Source of the DNA: a virus
Direction: 5' to 3' (one strand)
IMG/VR virus record: IMGVR_UViG_3300022758_000056
Coordinates: 1 to 5,649 of that record
DNA length: 5,649 bases
Positions 1 through 5,649 of this stretch are shown here, piece after piece. Each line of letters opens with the position of its first letter. The first letter of the stretch is position 1. The translations under genes were made by a program, and so were the position numbers. Below the pieces are notes generated by a model. That model ran no database searches, had not been told where the DNA came from, and saw only the letters and a list, made by a program, of their open reading frames with translations.

Positions 1-125
1 AAAAAAATGCCATTGCATCCCTAATCGAAAGAAACATGGAAACTGACAAACAGTATGCCGAACAACTGGCCGATAAAGAAGCAGTCATGAAGAAGAAGAT
101 GTCCAAAGCAAAGGGCGTTTTTTAG
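1..125 (+). CDS. Rep (VP4) C-terminal fragment, a duplicate of 5523..5647 created by linearising the circle
   Basis: Same frame and sequence as the end of ORF 4733..5647 (...KNAIASLIERNMETDKQYAEQLADKEAVMKKKMSKAKGVF), with stop TAG at 123-125. Confidence 0.9.
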   Translation, partial: KNAIASLIERNMETDKQYAEQLADKEAVMKKKMSKAKGVF

Positions 126-127
126 CT
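1..127 (+). repeat. Terminal direct repeat, copy A (circular-genome overlap; identical to 5523..5649)
   Basis: Aligned by eye: 1-127 (AAAAAAATGCCATTGCATCC...AAGGGCGTTTTTTAGCT) equals 5523-5649 base for base. 5521-5522 (AC) precede the second copy. This implies a circular unit of 5522 nt. Confidence 0.97.
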
Positions 128-134
128 CTGGTGT

Positions 135-184
135 CACTCAGCCAAGTAACTATCAAGTATATATACTTGGCTGAGTGTTTTTTT
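135..184 (+). terminator. Rho-independent terminator downstream of rep
   Basis: Perfect 14-bp stem, CACTCAGCCAAGTA (135-148) with TACTTGGCTGAGTG (164-177). The loop is 15 nt and is followed directly by T7 (178-184). It starts 10 nt after the rep stop. Confidence 0.85.
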
Positions 185-194
185 AGTTTTATCA

Positions 195-237
195 GCACGC
201 GCGCGCACGCGCACGTAATCGCGCACATGCACGCACG
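195..237. repeat. Alternating purine-pyrimidine (CG/CA)n tract, potentially Z-DNA-forming in the duplex replicative form
   Basis: GCACGCGCGCGCACGCGCACGTA (195-217) is 23 nt of perfect R-Y alternation. GCGCACATGCACGCACG (221-237) is 17 nt of perfect alternation. Only 3 nt separate the two blocks. Confidence 0.8.
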
Positions 238-266
238 ATTTTTATTATATTATTATTTATTATTTA
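238..266. repeat. Pure A/T tract (TTA/TAT-type microrepeats), a candidate DNA-unwinding element
   Basis: ATTTTTATTATATTATTATTTATTATTTA contains no G or C over 29 nt. It directly abuts the GC-rich alternating tract. Confidence 0.7.
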
Positions 267-299
267 CTTGTTGTAGCCGTAGTAGTAGGGAGTGTTGAA

Positions 300-383
300 A
301 TGTTGAATACTATAATTTTTTATCAGTGGAACGATATTTTGTGGTTAATTTTGATGTTGATACTTTTGTGGATAACTTGTTGA
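300..383 (+). CDS. Possible 27-aa hydrophobic peptide (MLNTIIFYQWNDILWLILMLILLWITC)
   Basis: ATG at 300 follows GGGAG (288-292) with a 7-nt spacer, and the stop is TGA 381-383. The hydrophobicity may simply reflect the T/G-rich repeats the ORF overlaps. Confidence 0.2.
   Translation: MLNTIIFYQWNDILWLILMLILLWITC
340..348 (-). promoter_or_regulatory. DnaA-box-like 9-mer (TTAACCACA on the - strand)
   Basis: + strand TGTGGTTAA. It has one mismatch to TTATNCACA and sits in the repeated context TTTTGTGG. Confidence 0.4.
367..375 (-). promoter_or_regulatory. Perfect consensus DnaA box (TTATCCACA on the - strand)
   Basis: + strand TGTGGATAA is the reverse complement of TTATCCACA. It is followed by CTTGTTGAA. 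Confidence 0.55.
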
Positions 384-401
384 ATTGTTGAAAGTGTAGC
401 A

Positions 402-410
402 ATATGCACA
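402..410 (+). promoter_or_regulatory. DnaA-box-like 9-mer in the opposite orientation (ATATGCACA)
   Basis: Matches TTATNCACA except at position 1. It overlaps the left arm of hairpin 405-424. Confidence 0.3.
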
Positions 411-424
411 AAACTATTTGTGCA
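405..424 (+). other. Hairpin with 8-bp stem and 4-nt loop
   Basis: TGCACAAA (405-412), loop ACTA, TTTGTGCA (417-424). The inverted repeat is perfect. Confidence 0.6.
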
Positions 425-430
425 ACTTTT

Positions 431-439
431 TGTGGAAAA
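431..439 (-). promoter_or_regulatory. DnaA-box-like 9-mer (TTTTCCACA on the - strand)
   Basis: + strand TGTGGAAAA fits the relaxed consensus TT(A/T)TNCACA. It is followed by CCTGTTGAA, the same composite layout as at 364-384. Confidence 0.45.
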
Positions 440-509
440 CCTGTTGAAAGTGTTAAAAGTGTTGAAAACGCAATTAAAGGCCGTCCGGCGAGCGGGACCG
501 GAAAGTTAC

Positions 510-549
510 GTCATGCTCTTCGTACGGCGCACCGCGCCTAGCGCATGAC
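510..549 (+). other. GC-rich nested stem-loop, a candidate ssDNA structural signal
   Basis: Outer stem is GTCATGC (510-516) with GCATGAC (543-549). Inner stem is GGCGC (526-530) with GCGCC (534-538) and a 3-nt loop. A further hairpin, TCCGG (484-488) with CCGGA (497-501), lies just upstream. Confidence 0.5.
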
Positions 550-586
550 CTTCAATGCAAAATTCTTCTGACTTTTTCCAAAAGTC

Positions 587-616
587 TTGACAAGCCCTCT
601 TTTTTTATGATATAAC
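587..616 (+). promoter_or_regulatory. Sigma70-type promoter for the rightward operon
   Basis: -35 TTGACA (587-592), 18-nt spacer, -10 TATAAC (611-616). TG at 608-609 gives an extended -10 (TGATATAAC). Confidence 0.65.
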
Positions 617-695
617 GTAAATAGTCAGACAGCACAGAGGTACATTTAACAAATTCTATTTTTACAAAATAACTTTACGAAAGAGGTGAACTGCT

Positions 696-800
696 CTGAC
701 CATCCAAGAAATCAAGACACTGTTTGACAACATCCAGAAAATCCTTGCAATGCTGGACAAAATCTACCACGCAGTAACAGGCAACGAACCGGAGGCGTAA
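696..800 (+). CDS. Possible small ORF lacking a canonical start (...LTIQEIKTLFDNIQKILAMLDKIYHAVTGNEPEA)
   Basis: The frame is open from 690 to TAA 798-800. AAGAGG (681-686) lies 9 nt before a CTG at 696, and the only ATG (750) would give 16 aa. Codon-position-1 G content is about 31%, which is coding-like. Confidence 0.25.
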   Translation: MTIQEIKTLFDNIQKILAMLDKIYHAVTGNEPEA

Positions 801-801
801 A

Positions 802-1131
802 ATGGAGAACAAACCATGGAACGTAAGAGACCAGACCGACGAGAACCTTATGCGGGAGTTGACGAAAACCTACAAAGCGATAGACGCCGCATACAGTATG
901 ATCAGAAAGGCCGCAAAATCGAAGACGCAAAATATTACGTTGACCTTGTGTTCCGAAAGAAAGCAGCTGCAAACGACATTGAGGTGGAAATCCTCAGAAG
1001 GGAAATCAACCATGGCAAAGAGGAGTAAAGTCCGCAAATCGAAAGACGCAAAAATCTACAACAAGACCGCACGAAAGACCAAGGCAATCAACCTGGGAAG
1101 CGGGGCAATGCGAGGGGGTATCCGACTGTGA
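802..1131 (+). CDS. 109-aa ORF whose C-terminal 39 aa form the basic DNA-binding module; a possible long isoform
   Basis: ATG 802 follows GGAGG (791-795) with a 6-nt spacer. However, codons at about 920-1011 in this frame have poor coding periodicity (about 10% G at position 1). Confidence 0.35.
   Translation: MENKPWNVRDQTDENLMRELTKTYKAIDAAYSMIRKAAKSKTQNITLTLCSERKQLQTTLRWKSSEGKSTMAKRSKVRKSKDAKIYNKTARKTKAINLGSGAMRGGIRL
816..1028 (+). CDS. Hypothetical 70-aa protein
   Basis: ATG 816 follows GGAG (804-807) with an 8-nt spacer. Periodicity is strong, with about 40% G at codon position 1 overall and about 49% in the 3' half. The sequence looks plausible (...KIEDAKYYVDLVFRKKAAANDIEVEILRREINHGKEE). 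Confidence 0.5.
   Translation: MERKRPDRREPYAGVDENLQSDRRRIQYDQKGRKIEDAKYYVDLVFRKKAAANDIEVEILRREINHGKEE
1012..1131 (+). CDS. Small basic DNA-binding/packaging protein (microvirus J / gokushovirus ORF8-like)
   Basis: MAKRSKVRKSKDAKIYNKTARKTKAINLGSGAMRGGIRL is 39 aa with 13 K/R. I recall the C-terminal MRGGIRL-type ending from gokushovirus small basic proteins. A weak SD, AAGGG (997-1001), lies upstream. Confidence 0.7.
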   Translation: MAKRSKVRKSKDAKIYNKTARKTKAINLGSGAMRGGIRL

Positions 1132-1239
1132 GCGCTGTATTCGCAAGCATGACTATGGCATTTATCGCGGGCGGGATTTTACCTCATCATTAACACAATC
1201 AACATCATCAAGGAATGGTTCAAATAAGGAGGCAACCAT

Positions 1240-1476
1240 ATGAACGTATACGGAATCTTTGATACCTGCGTGATGGGTTACATCACCATCTTTACCGAAC
1301 GTGACGACAAAGTGGCCGAACGTAATTTCAAAATCGCACTGACCGACGAACGAAACATCATGAGCAAGACTCCGAGCGACTATCGGCTGGTGCGACTGGC
1401 AAAATTCGACGAGAAAACGGGCCTGTTTGAGAACGAAAAGGAGAACATCTTCGATGGCGTATCGCTCAGTAAGTAA
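1240..1476 (+). CDS. Conserved small microvirus protein (gokushovirus VP5/ORF5-like)
   Basis: Excellent SD, AAGGAGG (1226-1232), 7 nt before the ATG. The 78-aa product has the motif ...SKTPSDYRLVRLAKFDEKTGLF..., which resembles the ...PEDY.L.ELG.FD..TG... signature I recall for this family. Confidence 0.65.
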   Translation: MNVYGIFDTCVMGYITIFTERDDKVAERNFKIALTDERNIMSKTPSDYRLVRLAKFDEKTGLFENEKENIFDGVSLSK

Positions 1477-1933
1477 CTTCAGGGAAACCGCAACGACAAA
1501 ACCTACCGAGGCCGGAGAAACCGTAAGGCGTACATACCTTTGGGAGTTCAACGAAAAAGGCGAAAAGGTCCTGGTGCTTGACCAGATCATCGACCAGCAG
1601 GCGGAAATCGACAGCTATCTAGAAGAGACCAAGCTTGAAAACATCATCCGGCGGGCATCCATCGACCCTGACCTTGCGGCTAGACTGGTGCCAGACATGG
1701 GTGGCGGGCTTCAAGACGCAACCGAGATGCCGGAGAATCTAATGGAGCTGCAGAACATCATGCTGCGGGCCGAGCAAATCTGGGATGAAATCCCAAAAGA
1801 AATCAAGCTCAAGTTTGACAATGACGTTGATAAATTTGTCACAAGCTTCGGCACTGTCAATTGGGCAAAAAATCTGGGCATCTATCAGGAAGCAAAAAAC
1901 CCGAGGGAACCGAAAACGGAGGCGACTGAATGA
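1454..1933 (+). CDS. Internal scaffolding protein VP3
   Basis: AAGGAG (1438-1443) lies 10 nt before ATG 1454; the ORF track starts at an upstream TTG (1427) that has no SD. The C-terminal part, ...MPENLMELQNIMLRAEQIWDEIPKEIKLKFDNDVDKFV..., matches the remembered gokushovirus scaffold pattern (F..LP..IR..F.N.P..F). The stop overlaps the VP1 start as ATGA (1930-1933). Confidence 0.8.
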   Translation: MAYRSVSNFRETATTKPTEAGETVRRTYLWEFNEKGEKVLVLDQIIDQQAEIDSYLEETKLENIIRRASIDPDLAARLVPDMGGGLQDATEMPENLMELQNIMLRAEQIWDEIPKEIKLKFDNDVDKFVTSFGTVNWAKNLGIYQEAKNPREPKTEATE

Positions 1934-2577
1934 ACAGAAACAAAGATGCAGGATTTAACCAAGTACCGCGGCTGGACATTACGCGAAGTCGCTTCAAACG
2001 GCGGCAGGATGTCAAGCTGACGATGAACGCGGGCCAGCTCATCCCGTTTTACGTGGACGAAGTATTACCCGGCGATACCTTCAGCATCGACCAGGCAGCA
2101 ATTATCCGTATGACAACTCCTATCTTCCCGGTTATGGACAACTGTTATATGGATATTTACTATTTCTACACGCCTAATCGTATCATCTGGGACAACTTCA
2201 AGCGATTCATGGGCGAAAACGATAAAGGACCATGGACGCAGACTCAAGAATACACCATTCCGCAAGTCGAAATCACCGGCACAACCGAAAAACCAGCACC
2301 GTACGAAGGAAGCATCATGGATTATATGGGCATTCCTACCAAGGTAAGCAAGGGAACAGATACGGCATTCAGAGTCAATGCACTGCCGTTCCGGGCATAC
2401 GCCATGATTTGGCAGGAGTGGTTCCGAGACCAGAACGTGGACAATCCGGTCATCAACTTCAAAGGAGACGGATTAATACATTACACAGACAATGAAGAAA
2501 AGGAATGGACGGAACAAAGCCCGATCTCCAATACATTCTCAATCAAGCATACACCGGCGGCAGACCTCTACCTGTAA
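1930..2577 (+). CDS. Major capsid protein VP1, N-terminal segment (frame broken before the gene is complete)
   Basis: GGAGG (1918-1922) lies 7 nt before the ATG. Capsid motifs include RSRFKRRQDVKLTMNAGQLIPFYVDEVLPGDTF, FYTPNRIIWDNFKRFMGEN and LPFRAYAMIWQEWFRDQN. It ends at TAA 2575-2577, while the remaining capsid sequence continues in another frame. Confidence 0.9.
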   Translation: MNRNKDAGFNQVPRLDITRSRFKRRQDVKLTMNAGQLIPFYVDEVLPGDTFSIDQAAIIRMTTPIFPVMDNCYMDIYYFYTPNRIIWDNFKRFMGENDKGPWTQTQEYTIPQVEITGTTEKPAPYEGSIMDYMGIPTKVSKGTDTAFRVNALPFRAYAMIWQEWFRDQNVDNPVINFKGDGLIHYTDNEEKEWTEQSPISNTFSIKHTPAADLYL

Positions 2578-3641
2578 ACAAATACCACGACTATTTTACC
2601 AGCGCGCTACCAAGTCCGCAGAAGGGACCAGCAATTAGATTGCCAATAACTGGAAGCGCACCTCTAGGAATGTACAACGCCAGTAACGGAAGCGTAACCA
2701 TTGATAGCCAAAAAATGGAAGAAATTCTGACAAGTGCAGGAATGACAACCTCTGGAAGCTTATTCACCGCAAACACATGGGACATAGGCATGGGCCCTAC
2801 AAGAAACAAAGGCCTTGCGGTCGGAACCGGGACGGAAGAAACGTATACAGGCGTAGCCTTGGGAGCTGACTTATCAAATGTAACAGCCGCAACCATCAAT
2901 CAGCTGCGGCAAGCATTCCAGGTACAGAAGTACTATGAGCAGCTGGCGCGTGGTGGCAGCCGCTACCGCGAGATGATTTACAGTCTGTTCCATACCAAGA
3001 TTTCGGACAAAACTGTGCAGATTCCGGAATATCTGGGCGGTACACGCATCACCATCAACATGAGTCAGGTCATCCAGACCAGCGGCACGACTACCGAGAG
3101 TCCGCAGGGTAACGCCGCGGCAATCAGTGTTACGCCGTACAACGGCAGTATGTTTACCAAGAGTTTCGAAGAGCACGGCTATGTTATCGGCGTGTGCTGC
3201 ATCCGGCATGACCATACCTACCAGCAGGGCTTGGAGCGCATGTGGAGTCGCAAGACTAATCTGGACTTCTACTATCCCGTCTTTGCAAACCTAGGCGAAC
3301 AGGCCATTCTGAAGAAGGAGCTGTATCTCACTGGTACAAGCACCGATGAACAGGCCTTTGGTTATCAGGAAGCTTGGGCAGAATACCGCATGAAGCCGAA
3401 CCGCATCAGCGGCAAGTTCCGGTCAAATGCAAAGGGGACGTTGGACAGCTGGCACTACGGCGACAACTACAAGGAGACTCCGAGCCTGAGCCAGGCATGG
3501 ATGAAGGAAGGAGATTCCGAGATTCAGAGGACTCTGGCAGTGGACAACGAACCTCAGTTCATCATGGACACGGTCATTGACAACACCAGCGTCAGACCTA
3601 TGCCTATGTACAGCATCCCGGGTCTCGTGGACCATCACTAA
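2505..3641 (+). CDS. Major capsid protein VP1, C-terminal segment (-1 frame relative to 1930..2577)
   Basis: Contains PLPVNKYHDYFTSALPSPQKG and the rest of a capsid-length sequence. This frame is open from 2496. The ATG at 2505 has no SD and is probably an internal Met rather than a true start. Confidence 0.9.
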   Translation: MDGTKPDLQYILNQAYTGGRPLPVNKYHDYFTSALPSPQKGPAIRLPITGSAPLGMYNASNGSVTIDSQKMEEILTSAGMTTSGSLFTANTWDIGMGPTRNKGLAVGTGTEETYTGVALGADLSNVTAATINQLRQAFQVQKYYEQLARGGSRYREMIYSLFHTKISDKTVQIPEYLGGTRITINMSQVIQTSGTTTESPQGNAAAISVTPYNGSMFTKSFEEHGYVIGVCCIRHDHTYQQGLERMWSRKTNLDFYYPVFANLGEQAILKKELYLTGTSTDEQAFGYQEAWAEYRMKPNRISGKFRSNAKGTLDSWHYGDNYKETPSLSQAWMKEGDSEIQRTLAVDNEPQFIMDTVIDNTSVRPMPMYSIPGLVDHH

Positions 3642-3650
3642 AGTTTTTCG

Positions 3651-3676
3651 TTATTGTTATTCTAGAATAGCAATAA
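3651..3676. repeat. 26-nt near-perfect palindrome centred on TCTAGA
   Basis: TTATTGTTATTCT (3651-3663) pairs with AGAATAGCAATAA (3664-3676). The arms are 13 nt with one T:G position. Confidence 0.7.
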
Positions 3677-3704
3677 TATAACGTAACAACGACAAAAATA
3701 AAAA

Positions 3705-3740
3705 GTCTCAGCTGAGGGCATCAGCTGAGACCTCAGCTGA
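3705..3740. repeat. Three copies of the 8-bp palindrome TCAGCTGA; the first two form an 11-bp hairpin
   Basis: TCAGCTGA occurs at 3708-3715, 3721-3728 and 3733-3740. GTCTCAGCTGA (3705-3715) pairs with TCAGCTGAGAC (3721-3731) around the loop GGGCA. Confidence 0.75.
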
Positions 3741-3751
3741 TGAAAGGGGGA

Positions 3752-3783
3752 AAGCCCGGGGCAAAAACCCTGGGCTTATTTTT
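3752..3783 (+). terminator. Terminator-like stem-loop with T-run abutting the VP2 start
   Basis: AAGCCCGGGG (3752-3761) pairs with CCCTGGGCTT (3768-3777), giving 10 bp including one G:U. The loop is CAAAAA, followed by ATTTTT (3778-3783). ATG 3784 comes immediately after. Confidence 0.6.
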
Positions 3784-4038
3784 ATGGGATTTTTCGCAGC
3801 AGCACTACCAATACTTAAAACAGTAGCACCATCGATCATAAGCTGGGGCGTGAACAAGCTTTTAGGCGGAAACATGTCAGAAAGCAGCGGAGGAAGCCAA
3901 CAGCACAACGAAAGCTATAGCCAAGGCGGAGGCCAAAGCAGCGCCGCCAGCGGCGTAAACCGAGAGCAAAATCTGCAAGACTGGAACAGTATGCTGGGAG
4001 CAATTCAGAGCAATATGCAAAGCCAGCAAAAAGTTTAA
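3784..4038 (+). CDS. Minor capsid/pilot protein VP2, N-terminal segment
   Basis: MGFFAAALPILKTVAPSIISWGVNKLLGG... followed by a G/S/Q-rich stretch is a typical VP2 N-terminus. It ends at TAA 4036-4038, just after an A5 run. Confidence 0.7.
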   Translation: MGFFAAALPILKTVAPSIISWGVNKLLGGNMSESSGGSQQHNESYSQGGGQSSAASGVNREQNLQDWNSMLGAIQSNMQSQQKV

Positions 4039-4048
4039 CCGTCGAAGC

Positions 4049-4624
4049 ATGTTCGAACAAATGGGCTATAACACCATGGCGGCAATCACTCAGGGTGTAT
4101 ATAACCAGATAAGCAACAACGCGGCGATGGCCTACAACAGCGCAGAAGCAGCCAAAAACAGAGCTTGGCAAGAGCAAATGAGCAACACAGCTTATCAGCG
4201 AGCCGTGGAAGATATGCGAAAAGCAGGCATCAACCCTATCTTAGCGTACCAACAGGGCGGAGCAAGCACGCCAGGAGGTGCACAGGGTACGATCAGTGGA
4301 GCAAGTATGGGTCTCGCAAGCAGCAGTGCAGCGACAGCAAGCGCTCTCGGAGTAAGCCAGAACCACAACAACACATGGAGCAAAAGCGAAAGCAACTGGT
4401 ACAACGCAGCGCAAGCAGTTGGAGACGCAACAAGCTGGTCACACACAAGCGCAGACAAAGCGTTTAATGCATTCAAGGACATCTTCAACGACCTCAGCAA
4501 CCTAAACAGTGGCGTCGGCGGAGGTGCAGGGAGAAAGCCAACCAAAGATGAGCTTGAATACAAGCCGGGAAGAGACTTCATAGGAAGCAAAAACATCGAA
4601 TATTGGAAAGGAAAACTTAAATAA
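4049..4624 (+). CDS. Minor capsid/pilot protein VP2, C-terminal segment (+1 frame relative to 3784..4038)
   Basis: Carries the VP2 signature AEAAKNRAWQEQMSNTAYQRAVEDMRKAGINPILAYQQGG. No SD precedes ATG 4049 or the next in-frame ATGs. This frame is open from 3959. Confidence 0.85.
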   Translation: MFEQMGYNTMAAITQGVYNQISNNAAMAYNSAEAAKNRAWQEQMSNTAYQRAVEDMRKAGINPILAYQQGGASTPGGAQGTISGASMGLASSSAATASALGVSQNHNNTWSKSESNWYNAAQAVGDATSWSHTSADKAFNAFKDIFNDLSNLNSGVGGGAGRKPTKDELEYKPGRDFIGSKNIEYWKGKLK

Positions 4625-4668
4625 ATAAATGGGATGCAATAAACCGTTAATCCGGTTTTATGTACCTC

Positions 4669-4698
4669 ATGACAGAGAGGCGAGCGGGCGTGTATACT
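4669..4698 (+). promoter_or_regulatory. Candidate sigma70-type promoter for rep
   Basis: ATGACA (4669-4674), 18-nt spacer, TATACT (4693-4698), about 35 nt upstream of the rep ATG. The spacing matches the promoter at 587-616. Confidence 0.4.
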
Positions 4699-4710
4699 CG
4701 CTCGCTTCTT
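4675..4710 (+). other. Stable hairpin overlapping the candidate rep promoter
   Basis: The core is GCGAGCG (4680-4686) with CGCTCGC (4699-4705). It extends to 12 bp with two G:T pairs (4675-4686 with 4699-4710). The 12-nt loop contains the putative -10. Confidence 0.6.
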
Positions 4711-4732
4711 TAATGCGACACATAAGACCAGT

Positions 4733-5647
4733 ATGAAATATGAAGATTTGATGTATCGTAAAGATGTGATGATGATTCCATGCGGACAATGCACAGGATG
4801 CAAACTACGCAAGCGCAAAGACTGGGCCACGCGGATGGAGCTGGAAGCATACAGCCACAAAAAGGAAAGCATCTGGTTTATCACACTGACCTATGATGAC
4901 AACCATGTGCCAACGCAGGACACAGAAACAGGGGAAATCTTCAAAGGAGGCGTGAACGTATGGAAAGACACCTCAGAGCGTCCTAGAACGGTGCAAACTT
5001 TAAACGTGGAGGATATCCAACTATTTATGAAGAGGCTAAGGAAGGCCGTCAGCGAGCCTCTCAGATACTTCCTAGCCGGAGAGTATGGAGACAACACCTC
5101 AAGACCACACTATCACATGATACTATACGGGTGGTATCCAGACGACTTAAAGCCAATTCACAGGCTGTCAAGGTTTGGACACTACACGAGCGATAAGCTG
5201 GTCAAAGTCTGGGGACAAGGGACAGTTGACATAGCTCAAGCAACGCCAGAGACGTATAACTACGTAGCTGGATATGTGACCAAGAAGCTGTACGGAAACG
5301 ACAAAGACAAGTACAGGAAAATGGGACTCATACCGCCATTCTGCGTAATGAGCCGAAAGCCAGGACTCGGAGACGAATGGTTTCAAAAGAATCAAGAAAG
5401 ACTATGGCAACTTGGATACATCCAGCTGACAAACGGAAAGAGAGCAGCCATTCCAGAATATTATTGGCGAAAGCTGGAAGCTGAAAATCCTGAAAAGGCG
5501 TGGAGAATCAAGCAGTATCGACAAAAAAATGCCATTGCATCCCTAATCGAAAGAAACATGGAAACTGACAAACAGTATGCCGAACAACTGGCCGATAAAG
5601 AAGCAGTCATGAAGAAGAAGATGTCCAAAGCAAAGGGCGTTTTTTAG
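4733..5647 (+). CDS. Replication initiation protein VP4 (HUH rolling-circle endonuclease)
   Basis: N-terminal PCGQCTGCKLRKRKDW. Motif I is FITLTY (4877-4894). Motif II is HYH within RPHYHMILYG (5108-5116). Motif III is YVAGYVTKK (5261-5287). 304 aa, with stop TAG 5645-5647. Confidence 0.93.
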   Translation: MKYEDLMYRKDVMMIPCGQCTGCKLRKRKDWATRMELEAYSHKKESIWFITLTYDDNHVPTQDTETGEIFKGGVNVWKDTSERPRTVQTLNVEDIQLFMKRLRKAVSEPLRYFLAGEYGDNTSRPHYHMILYGWYPDDLKPIHRLSRFGHYTSDKLVKVWGQGTVDIAQATPETYNYVAGYVTKKLYGNDKDKYRKMGLIPPFCVMSRKPGLGDEWFQKNQERLWQLGYIQLTNGKRAAIPEYYWRKLEAENPEKAWRIKQYRQKNAIASLIERNMETDKQYAEQLADKEAVMKKKMSKAKGVF

Positions 5648-5649
5648 CT
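5523..5649 (+). repeat. Terminal direct repeat, copy B (identical to 1..127)
   Basis: See copy A. Confidence 0.97.

Follow-up and report, generated by a model that had tools for sequence, protein, structure and literature searches.

Microviruses are known to initiate replication with an HUH nickase of their own and to depend otherwise on the elongation and primosome machinery of the host, and we know of no microvirus that uses the chromosomal initiator DnaA. What, then, does a noncoding gokushovirus region do that is laid out like a DnaA-dependent origin? The region lies at positions 126 to 689 of IMG/VR record IMGVR_UViG_3300022758_000056 (positions 1 to 5,649; the window, i.e., the whole stretch of 5,649 nucleotides [nt] that was analysed). 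The window is a complete circular gokushovirus genome of 5,522 nt with an exact 127-nt terminal direct repeat (1 to 127 identical to 5523 to 5649) within the gene for the replication protein (Rep, or VP4), and every gene of the genome is on the + strand. A first-pass annotation had described the region as free of open reading frames (ORFs) of at least 60 amino acids on either strand and as ~0.56 kb, or ~10%, of the genome; no such ORF overlaps it, and its 564 nt make up 10.2% of the true genome length. The longest ORFs that overlap it are 131 to 298, 85 to 228, and 404 to 541 (55, 47, and 45 amino acids, respectively), and no PHROG family was found for the two + strand ORFs tested, 131 to 298 and 404 to 541. 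The modules listed in that annotation were all found, roughly where it had placed them, but it had overlooked a block of TAG triplets located past the A/T tract and ahead of the first boxes. From the sequence comparisons described below, we consider it probable that the core of the region (238 to 468) is an oriC-type DnaA module set within a replication and expression control region (126 to 689). Such a layout is unexpected for a rolling-circle microvirus and suggests the recruitment of a host factor.

The basal unwinding system (BUS) of bacterial chromosome origins comprises a single DnaA box or a tandem of them, 0 to 16 bp of spacer (a GC cluster of ~4 bp), three or more DnaA-trios, and a DNA unwinding element (DUE) rich in A/T (PMC8287927, PMC6669920, PMC7561715). 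It has been described by Richardson (2016 and 2019), by Pelliciari (2021; PMC8287927), and for oriC2 of Clostridioides difficile (PMC7561715). The DnaA-trio is 3'-[G/A]A[T/A]-5' with a central A, GAT being preferred beside the box, and the box is allowed at most 2 mismatches to the standard motif at 0 to 16 bp from the trios, with at most 4 mismatches in a second, tandem box (PMC8287927). Reversal of the tandem boxes inactivates incC of Bacillus subtilis (PMC6669920).

Counterparts of all these elements were recognized in the core, in the same arrangement. The A/T tract is the longest A/T-only run in the genome (the next is 14 nt), coincides with its least stable 30-nt duplex window (-25.0 kcal/mol versus a mean of -40.3 +/- 3.6 kcal/mol), and lies on the far side of the trios, as the unwinding element of a BUS does. 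Positions 236 to 312 are unstructured as single-stranded DNA (ssDNA), the stable ssDNA folds of the region being hairpin A, hairpin F, and a GC-rich element, which are described further below. In the run of six triplets that follows the tract, the three box-proximal TAGs (280 to 288) correspond to the preferred trio 3'-GAT-5', and a further TAG is present at 274 to 276, so that the + strand carries the at least three consecutive trios of a BUS. On the strand complementary to the trios, TnnT is repeated; this motif forms the core of the element that DnaD recognizes in B. subtilis. Like the GC cluster of the BUS, the spacer is G-rich, and the two abutting box-like elements behind it, TGTTGAAA and TGTTGAATA, match boxes 7 and 6 of B. 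subtilis (TGTGGATT TGTGGATAA) in orientation and in their 8-nt offset. With the 4-nt spacer, the tandem boxes are oriented toward the trios as in the seven validated BUS scaffolds.

The likeness is best seen against the validated scaffold strand of B. subtilis, 5'-TAGTAGAAGTAATAGTAG-GGCC-TGTGGATT-TGTGGATAA, to which window positions 271 to 309 correspond as TTGTAGCCGTAGTAGTAG-GGAG-TGTTGAAA-TGTTGAATA; in each, six triplets are followed by a 4-nt spacer and by boxes of 8 and then 9 nt, and the two agree in strand and orientation. An A/T tract beyond the trios and additional upstream box clusters are also common to the BUS and the window. When the validated scaffold strands (supplement of PMC8287927) were slid ungapped over both strands of the genome and compared with 300 dinucleotide shuffles, the best genome-wide match was at 271 to 274 on the + strand for five of the seven scaffolds, i.e., those of B. 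subtilis (28/41), Staphylococcus aureus (24/38), Synechococcus elongatus (26/41), Listeria monocytogenes (24/38), and Deinococcus radiodurans (25/42), and only 0 to 2 of the 300 shuffles reached these scores. The matches of the other two scaffolds, from Enterococcus faecalis and Helicobacter pylori, were not significant.

The region is present in 43 GenBank gokushovirus records (blastn), always directly 3' of the VP4 stop codon and within an unannotated VP4-to-VP5 gap of 1.0 to 1.6 kb; the closest of these relatives are gut Gokushovirinae from faeces of humans, pigs, monkeys, and dogs. Pattern scans of IMG/VR enlarged the set to at least 160 element-bearing genomes, of which subsets of 112, 156, or 157 were used for some counts. 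Absence from relatives had been named in advance as grounds for giving up the idea of a functional module; the region is conserved in more than 150 of them, and the order and orientation of the modules are fixed across those aligned. In MT135258, MG945391, MG945157, and KT264799, the megablast match to the window is confined to the noncoding region. The same locus is the best scaffold match in ~130 to 155 of the 160 related genomes, and seven phage genomes have a 23-mer, GTAGTAGTAGGGGCTGTGGAAAA, in common with the BUS of S. elongatus. The BUS rules are satisfied at the locus in 97 of 160 genomes when the perfect Escherichia coli box is the standard and in 154 when the B. subtilis W motif is used, against a background of 0.04 to 0.09 hits per kb elsewhere in the same genomes.

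Within the core, the elements vary in different ways. The A/T tract differs in sequence and length (~12 to 29 nt) among the relatives and keeps its A/T-only composition. Among genomes sampled without regard to trios, the three TAGs nearest the box are conserved and the fourth triplet varies freely; where substitutions occur (TAA and CAG), the central A is retained. The spacer is 4 nt long in ~146 of 156 genomes and varies in sequence (GGAG, GGGC, GCAA, AGTA, GCAC, and others), and the first box is TGTTGAAA in 71 genomes, TGTGGAAA in 52, and AGTGGAAA in 13. The + strand consensus of 112 genomes reads [A/T tract] ACTTG TTG TAG nnG TAG TAG TAG [4 nt] TGTKGAAA (A/T)GTTGAAWA. This pattern of variation in the trios, spacer, and boxes is what a BUS predicts.

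The core also differs from known BUSs. Its dominant box has a T at position 4, and its two distal "trios" are TTG and overlap a motif that resembles a Rep nick site. It belongs to an ssDNA phage of 5.5 kb that replicates by rolling circle, where it separates Rep/VP4 from the structural operon; part of a chromosomal origin would instead lie beside dnaA/dnaN, at the switch in GC skew. The module thus appears to work like, or to mimic, a BUS without being a chromosomal oriC. No description of a DnaA-type module in a gokushovirus, a microvirus, or the Microviridae, or of DnaA-trios in a phage, was found in the full-text literature, the coverage of which is incomplete. The device that we propose is of a known kind; new is its occurrence in an ssDNA phage that replicates by rolling circle, where it may be fused to the Rep nick site.

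The core pair is followed by two further arrays of boxes. The first-pass annotation had distinguished iterons from DnaA boxes, but the two share aligned positions between genomes and form a single 9-mer family, TGT(T/G)GAAAA, so that the repeats are variants of DnaA boxes rather than a separate class of iterons. The theta-type layout that it had recognized accordingly loses its iterons, whereas the chromosomal-type A/T tract with DnaA boxes stands and is strengthened by the triplets, the spacer, and the tandem boxes. The box does not vary at positions 2, 3, and 6 to 8, and its position 4 takes G or T (1171 cases of T, 215 of G, 1 of A, and 0 of C across 160 genomes). The sequence CTTGTTGAATTGTTGAAAG is nearly invariant across 112 genomes. 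In the window, exact TGTTGAA occurs in six copies, all on the + strand between 293 and 466, with none elsewhere in the genome, and the only two consensus boxes of the genome (TTWTNCACA; 367 and 431) are on one strand. Box density is 7.7 per 100 nt in the same-strand cluster and 0.86 elsewhere. The 0A box of Spo0A has the consensus TGTCGAA, with C at position 4, and a cluster of 0A boxes was ruled out by the zero cases of C at that position over the 160 genomes.

Boxes of this type have counterparts in bacterial origins. A box with T at position 4 is part of the validated E. faecalis scaffold (TGTTGATTC). The predicted BUS of Clostridium acetobutylicum reads ...TAGTAGTAG-GGAG-TGTGGATT-TGTTGATAA, its spacer being identical to that of the window. 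The predicted BUS boxes are TGTTGATA-TGTTAATAA in Clostridium botulinum and TGTTGAAA in Butyrivibrio proteoclasticus, the predicted oriC of Ruminococcus albus contains TGTTGAAAA-ACC-TGTTGAAAA, and TAGTAGTAGGGGCTGTGG is common to [C.] saccharolyticum and phage variants. Where Rep is only 44 to 58% identical (VP1, 51 to 59%), the 200-nt core keeps 72 to 79% nucleotide identity and 8 to 9 boxes of the same consensus. The repeats thus remain constant while Rep diverges, an argument for a conserved host protein as the binder rather than one specific to the phage. One relative (L035; L numbers are our labels for genomes and contigs) has a Rep with 47% amino acid identity and a core with 94% nucleotide identity to those of the window, which points to exchange of the module between divergent gokushovirus lineages.

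How the module might serve a rolling-circle phage is suggested by the junction of the A/T tract and the trios, where a near-invariant block, ACTTGTTGTAG, is a candidate Rep nick site (N1); (A/T)ACTTGTTGTAG was found in 143 of 157 genomes. The + strand ACTTG|TTG at 266 to 273 matches the loop motif of phiMH2K, and ACTTGTTGTA is present both in the phiMH2K loop and at window positions 266 to 275. Chp2 has a 14-bp intergenic hairpin with the loop TCTACTTGATC, which contains CTACTTGAT, and phiMH2K has a 10-bp intergenic hairpin with a loop containing CTACTTGTTGTAA. In the phiX174 record, the viral-strand origin (rep_origin) is at nt 4306, CAACTTG|ATATTAATAAC (CAACTTG|ATA), and the pC194 origin contains CTTGATA. 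The phiX174/pC194 superfamily and the classical gokushoviruses have the Rep family (PF23343) and an ACTTG(A/T)T motif in common with the window. However, the motif of Chp2 and phiMH2K is in a hairpin loop, whereas the + strand copy of the window is not in a hairpin and is flanked by the DUE and the DnaA module, and the phiX174 origin is located inside gene A without sites for a host initiator. No BUS-like module was found in the compact genomes (4.4 to 4.6 kb) of Chp2, phiMH2K, and SpV4. These differences suggest that the clade of the window may expose its Rep nick site through DnaA-driven melting and not through hairpin extrusion. The nick-like motif at the junction, together with the invariant loop and covarying stems of hairpin A, indicates that the region is probably part of the Rep-driven origin and not an alternative to it.

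In Chp2 (L221), positions 2811 to 2950 contain two consensus-type boxes, TGTGCAAAA at 2820 and 2832, on the same strand and ~90 nt upstream of the 14-bp hairpin. The arrangement hints that classical gokushoviruses, too, may have DnaA boxes close to their putative origin.

In the mechanism that we favour, host DnaA-ATP would bind the boxes of the replicative form, polymerise onto the TAG trios of the + strand, and melt the A/T tract (opening 238 to 270), as at a Firmicutes chromosome origin. The melted ACTTG|TTG would be presented as ssDNA to the HUH Rep (VP4), which would nick at G270/T271, and melting might also, or instead, permit loading of the host replicative helicase. Of the flanking elements, hairpin A would contribute a terminator and its loop, the GC-rich purine-pyrimidine tract a clamp, the GC-rich ssDNA hairpins possibly the priming of the complementary strand, and the promoter the expression of the operon. 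We are less confident of the coupling to Rep nicking than of the DnaA module itself. A bolder form of the proposal, which we put forward tentatively as a possibility, is that this gut clade has swapped the hairpin in which classical relatives expose the nick site for a host DnaA unwinding module, with DnaA-ATP, which reports the growth state of the host, licensing rolling-circle replication or even plasmid-like theta replication of the double-stranded form.

If the proposal is correct, the phage would replicate in step with the cell cycle of its host. Stable, long-term carriage of unintegrated microviruses by gut Clostridia could then be explained, and there would be a mechanism for growth-state-coupled replication or nonintegrative persistence. 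It would also be a new route by which a rolling-circle replicon opens its origin. The boxes, spacer, and trios of the phage should then mirror the oriC of its host, giving a sequence handle on the hosts of the most abundant gut ssDNA phages, and the module would be a minimal natural BUS of ~70 nt with many natural variants for the study of DnaA-trios. The claim, which concerns hundreds of gut gokushovirus genomes, is open to published in vitro assays.

Several observations weigh against this interpretation. The case for a DnaA module is built wholly on sequence. The box pair of the window is weak, each box having 3 mismatches to TGTGGATAA and 2 to TGTGGAWAA, so that the pair fails the strictest published rule when judged by the former and passes when judged by the latter; even that rule is loose and gives two chance hits elsewhere in the window genome. 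Box-like 9-mers are just moderately enriched for a sequence of this composition (14 versus 8.0 +/- 2.2 in shuffles). As for the nick site, the C of ACTTG is replaced by T in ~8% of genomes (ATTTG in 11), and a second nick-like motif, TACTTGATAG, belongs to hairpin A, whose loop carries it on the - strand, and is closer to the motif of phiX174, pC194, and Chp2; exact CTTGATA occurs only there. The Rep site is thus ambiguous, N1 (+) and the hairpin A loop (-) both being candidates by their sequence. Rep might also be hindered, not helped, by DnaA polymerised on the trios of the + strand. Finally, a scan of species genomes gave chance hits only, and the single contig that joins phage to bacterial DNA (L224; see below) has its junction inside feoB and VP1 and may represent illegitimate recombination, integration of a concatemer, or a chimera.

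The alternatives account for some of these features better than for others. An autonomous theta-type replicon, in which the module would load two host helicases for Rep-free bidirectional copying of the double-stranded form and for cell-cycle-coupled, plasmid-like carriage in dividing gut bacteria while rolling circle served only to produce ssDNA progeny, comes close to what the first-pass annotation had in mind; it overlaps with the favoured mechanism and does not exclude it. It would make use of the complete BUS, including the TnnT core of the DnaD element on the strand complementary to the trios, and of upstream box arrays comparable with the distal DnaA-box subregion found in incC of B. 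subtilis, and it would agree with the lack of an integrase and of detected prophage copies, as well as with an accessory function suggested by the absence of the module from the compact classical gokushoviruses. We nevertheless regard it as unlikely: the 5.5-kb genome has no partition or copy-control function, a functional origin requires more than a BUS in both B. subtilis and C. difficile (PMC6669920, PMC7561715), and the position of the nick-like motif exactly at the DUE/trio junction suggests coupling to Rep. DnaA-assisted theta origins of plasmids and phages offer a partial parallel, since RK2 oriV, pSC101, F, R6K, and P1 oriR are, like the window, mobile replicons with DnaA boxes beside an A/T-rich DUE and with direct repeats (PMC10797057). 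In them, however, a plasmid initiator acts on iterons of 17 to 22 bp and DnaA only assists, whereas the window has 9-mer box variants and trios; no gene for an iteron-binding initiator was found in the window genome, whose only replication gene is that of the HUH Rep (PF23343). According to a 2024 review, no DnaA-ssDNA interaction of the trio type has been reported for plasmid DUEs (PMC10797057).

A simpler role for DnaA, as the ligand of a sink or sensor in which 10 to 12 boxes per genome, multiplied by the copy number of the replicative form, titrate the protein so as to block or reprogram initiation by the host, or in which box occupancy, as a signal of growth state, regulates the adjacent promoter, would be in keeping with the dense same-strand cluster and with an inverted box-like TTTTCCAAA near the -35 hexamer, and B. 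subtilis is known to have DnaA-box clusters outside oriC that regulate initiation and transcription (PMC3245932). Such clusters, like E. coli datA, are comparable with the window as groups of boxes outside oriC with a role related to replication and differ from it by having neither trios nor a DUE. Titration would leave unexplained why the trios are conserved, the spacer is held at 4 nt, the orientation is strict, and the adjacent A/T tract is the least stable duplex, all of them features that belong to an unwinding device, and we hold this role to be improbable. Repeats and TAG block could also be bound by Rep or another phage protein, as at the double-strand origins of rolling-circle plasmids and CRESS-DNA viruses, the resemblance to a BUS being coincidental; TGTTGAAA would then be a phage-specific iteron. 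Rolling-circle replicons often have iterons beside their nick site, T and not the canonical G occupies position 4 of the dominant repeat, and the module always adjoins the Rep gene. The bind locus of pMV158 is an example of such iterons (PMC1851628). This reading is set back, and made very improbable in our judgement, by repeats that remain unchanged across Reps of 44 to 58% identity, by the free interchange of G and T at position 4 and the many genomes with perfect consensus boxes, by a joint match to the validated BUS in order, orientation, spacer, and trios that exceeds shuffles, and by Chp2 and phiMH2K, which have homologous Reps but no such repeats. That the region is an assembly chimera, as the first-pass annotation had allowed for, or a functionless piece of captured host DNA might be suspected from single-base frameshifts in VP2 and Rep, which show that the sequence is imperfect. 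A chimera is excluded by the 127-nt circular overlap and by independent assemblies from GenBank, IMG/VR, and ENA (humans, pigs, monkeys, and dogs) with the same module order; with compensatory evolution in hairpin A and no blastn match of positions 230 to 560 to 72,556 plasmids or to E. coli genomes, an artefact of any kind has a negligible chance of being the explanation. The preferred reading remains that of a DnaA module within a Rep-driven origin, and its elements and neighbouring features are collected in Table 1.

Table 1. Positions of the origin-like elements and of the genes in the window
Feature	Position	Strand	Description
Rep/VP4	4733-5647, continuing through 1-125	+	HUH Rep, PF23343; stop codon 123-125
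Hairpin A	135-177	+	Arms 135-153/159-177; directly after Rep/VP4 stop; T-run 178-184 (7 T)
Alternating purine-pyrimidine (CG/CA)n tract	195-237		Runs 195-217 and 220-237 flanking central AAT
Pure A/T tract, DUE-like	238-266		29 nt
Candidate Rep nick site N1	266-276	+	Near-invariant block ACTTGTTGTAG at A/T-tract/trio junction; putative cut G270/T271
DnaA-trio-like run	271-288	+	Six triplets, TTG TAG CCG TAG TAG TAG
Spacer GGAG	289-292	+	4 nt, between trios and first box
Abutting DnaA-box-like pair	293-300, 301-309	+	TGTTGAAA, TGTTGAATA; 8-nt offset
Second box array	340-394	+	TGTGGTTAA 340, TGTTGATAC 355, TGTGGATAA 367 (perfect consensus), TGTTGAATT 378, TGTTGAAAG 386
Hairpin F	405-424		TGCACAAA-ACTA-TTTGTGCA; between second and third box arrays
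Third box array	431-468	+	TGTGGAAAA 431 (consensus), TGTTGAAAG 442, TGTTAAAAG 451, TGTTGAAAA 460
GC-rich element	484-549	+	TCCGG/CCGGA hairpin (484-488/498-502); GTCATGC/GCATGAC stem (510-516/543-549)
Hairpin GACTTTT-TCC-AAAAGTC	570-586	+	Ends immediately 5' of -35 hexamer
Promoter block	570-616	+	-35 TTGACA 587-592, 18-nt spacer, extended -10 TGaTATAAC 608-616; read by eye
Small conserved ORF	from ~696	+	
J-like basic protein	1012-1131	+	
VP5	1240-1476	+	PF20577
VP3 scaffold protein	1427-1933	+	PF09675
VP1	1930-3641	+	
VP2	3784-4624	+	

Hairpin A was not listed by the terminator scan, its loop being longer than the 8-nt limit of the scan. It folds stably as ssDNA (dG, -15.9 kcal/mol; z, -7.8), and its loop holds an invariant CTATCAAG (150 to 157), the reverse complement of which on the - strand is CTTGATAG. 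In 136 of 160 genomes, the loop sequence (A/C)CTATCAAG is unchanged and the stem occurs in at least three compensated versions; 7 of 14 pairs have changed on both sides, and the covariation score of 0.337 was reached by none of 500 shuffles (0.113) and exceeds that of slid controls (at most 0.12). Hairpin A is a selected structure. For the terminator proposed in the first-pass annotation, the window has a stem and a T-run, but the loop is long, its invariance and the covarying stems point beyond a plain terminator, and the T-run is weak or absent in the other stem variants. Hairpin A is probably the terminator of the single transcription unit with an additional, sequence-specific role. A XerCD/dif-like site was considered for it and dropped, since no convincing dif arms were seen by eye and there are no integrated copies to define an attachment site. 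An Rfam 15 covariance-model scan of the entire window gave zero matches at E-values up to 1, so the hairpins are not explained by any known RNA family.

The alternating tract is an imperfect palindrome with potential for Z-DNA or cruciform formation. A tract of at least 16 nt is present in 79 of 112 genomes (~70%); in other genomes it is replaced by an unrelated GC-rich hairpin (a perfect 18-bp hairpin in L004), and it is absent from L010 to L012. A simple hairpin was rejected as the conserved feature, the substitutions being transitions that preserve the purine-pyrimidine alternation and not the pairing. Downstream of the box pair, an A/T-rich spacer (310 to 339; region 310 to 354) holds a short palindrome in which a compensated change was seen by eye (TTTAACGTT..AACGTAAA versus TTTAACGCT..AGCGTAAA); it may fold into a small hairpin or be bound by a dimeric protein. 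Hairpin F, found in 51 of 112 genomes, has an invariant stem, a variable loop, and box-like arms (TTGTGCA).

Another system in which DnaA acts on ssDNA is the ABC primosome, which Masai and Arai reportedly described in 1990 as DnaA dependent and as assembling on ssDNA hairpins with a DnaA box in the stem. The boxes of the window are instead direct repeats, and their complement is absent from the genome, so they stay single stranded in the virion strand. With no complement to the repeats, and with a weak 15-nt pairing (360 to 374 with 403 to 417) that is not conserved in the consensus, an ABC primosome was rejected.

The GC-rich element is very well conserved in sequence; it comes in two sequence types of the same architecture and was found in 102 of 160 genomes. 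Its outer 7-bp stem encloses GGCGC-ACC-GCGCC (526 to 538), and its 12 predicted pairs are mostly invariant, with a double compensatory change in one genome. It may be a site of ssDNA priming (complementary-strand origin) or of protein binding; an ssoA-like reading (TAGCGC versus CS-6) was considered but not adopted.

The promoter was missed by the consensus scan, in which its -10 hexamer, ending in C, was not listed. It is conserved in L001, L002, L005, and L007 and precedes the operon of the small ORF, VP5, VP3, and VP1. The inverted box-like TTTTCCAAA (574 to 582) is located inside the hairpin at 570 to 586, 5 nt upstream of the -35 hexamer, and could serve DnaA-dependent control of the promoter or looping to the box at 431. 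In L001 and L005 to L012, one to three variable small cargo ORFs are inserted at ~585, so that the window represents the minimal, cargo-free version. The cargo insert has its own TTGACA/TATAAT promoter and ribosome-binding site and lies between the GC-rich element and the conserved promoter; in L224 and L225, the cargo ORF encodes a Peptidase_M15-like protein.

When the core pattern was searched for in 185,579 species genomes, there were 21 hits, all of them chance matches in unrelated coding repeats and none in a prophage or host; more than 6,800 Rep homologues are on genome-sized contigs, and no prophage was found. The contig L224 (ENA ERZ15610145 NODE_3616) consists of ~4 kb of bacterial DNA fused at nt 4007 to 1.76 tandem phage copies with a period of 5,888 nt. 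Its phage part has the full module with six consensus boxes. The bacterial part encodes MerR, an aldo/keto reductase, a DtxR-like protein, two FeoA proteins, and the N terminus of FeoB, and it belongs to Lachnospiraceae, with 89 to 90% identity to proteins of named metagenome-assembled genomes. The box type, the strong Shine-Dalgarno sites, the TTGACA/extended -10 promoters, and L224, which we treat as weak evidence, agree in pointing to a host among the Clostridia. Chlamydiae were considered as hosts, the DoriC motif TTTTCAACA being listed for Chlamydia pneumoniae AR39, but Chp2 is without the module and the samples are from the gut, so that Clostridia fit better.

A generic scan for TAGTAGTAG-N4-TGTGGATAA found canonical BUS-like modules in several contigs of dsDNA phages. 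In IMG/VR, the contigs L228/L231/L239, L230, L235, L238, and L243 (12 to 160 kb) have BUS-like modules with 6 to 9 consensus boxes within 300 nt and no microvirus genes, and L243 also encodes a DnaB-like helicase. The use of BUS-like modules by phages may be wider than the gokushoviruses.

Three core genes of the window are each broken into two ORFs: VP1 (~2505 to 2577), VP2 (~4033), and Rep near its N terminus (~4634 and ~4711). Compared with the intact close relative L159, the splits in VP2 and Rep are single-base indels, and the indel in VP1 was not located; the frameshifts suggest sequencing or assembly errors or a defective genome. A second noncoding stretch, the VP1-VP2 gap (3642 to 3783), contains an A/T-rich palindrome at ~3655 to 3690, CAGCTGA repeats, and terminator-like hairpins on both strands (3702 to 3734 on the - strand and 3752 to 3777 on the + strand).

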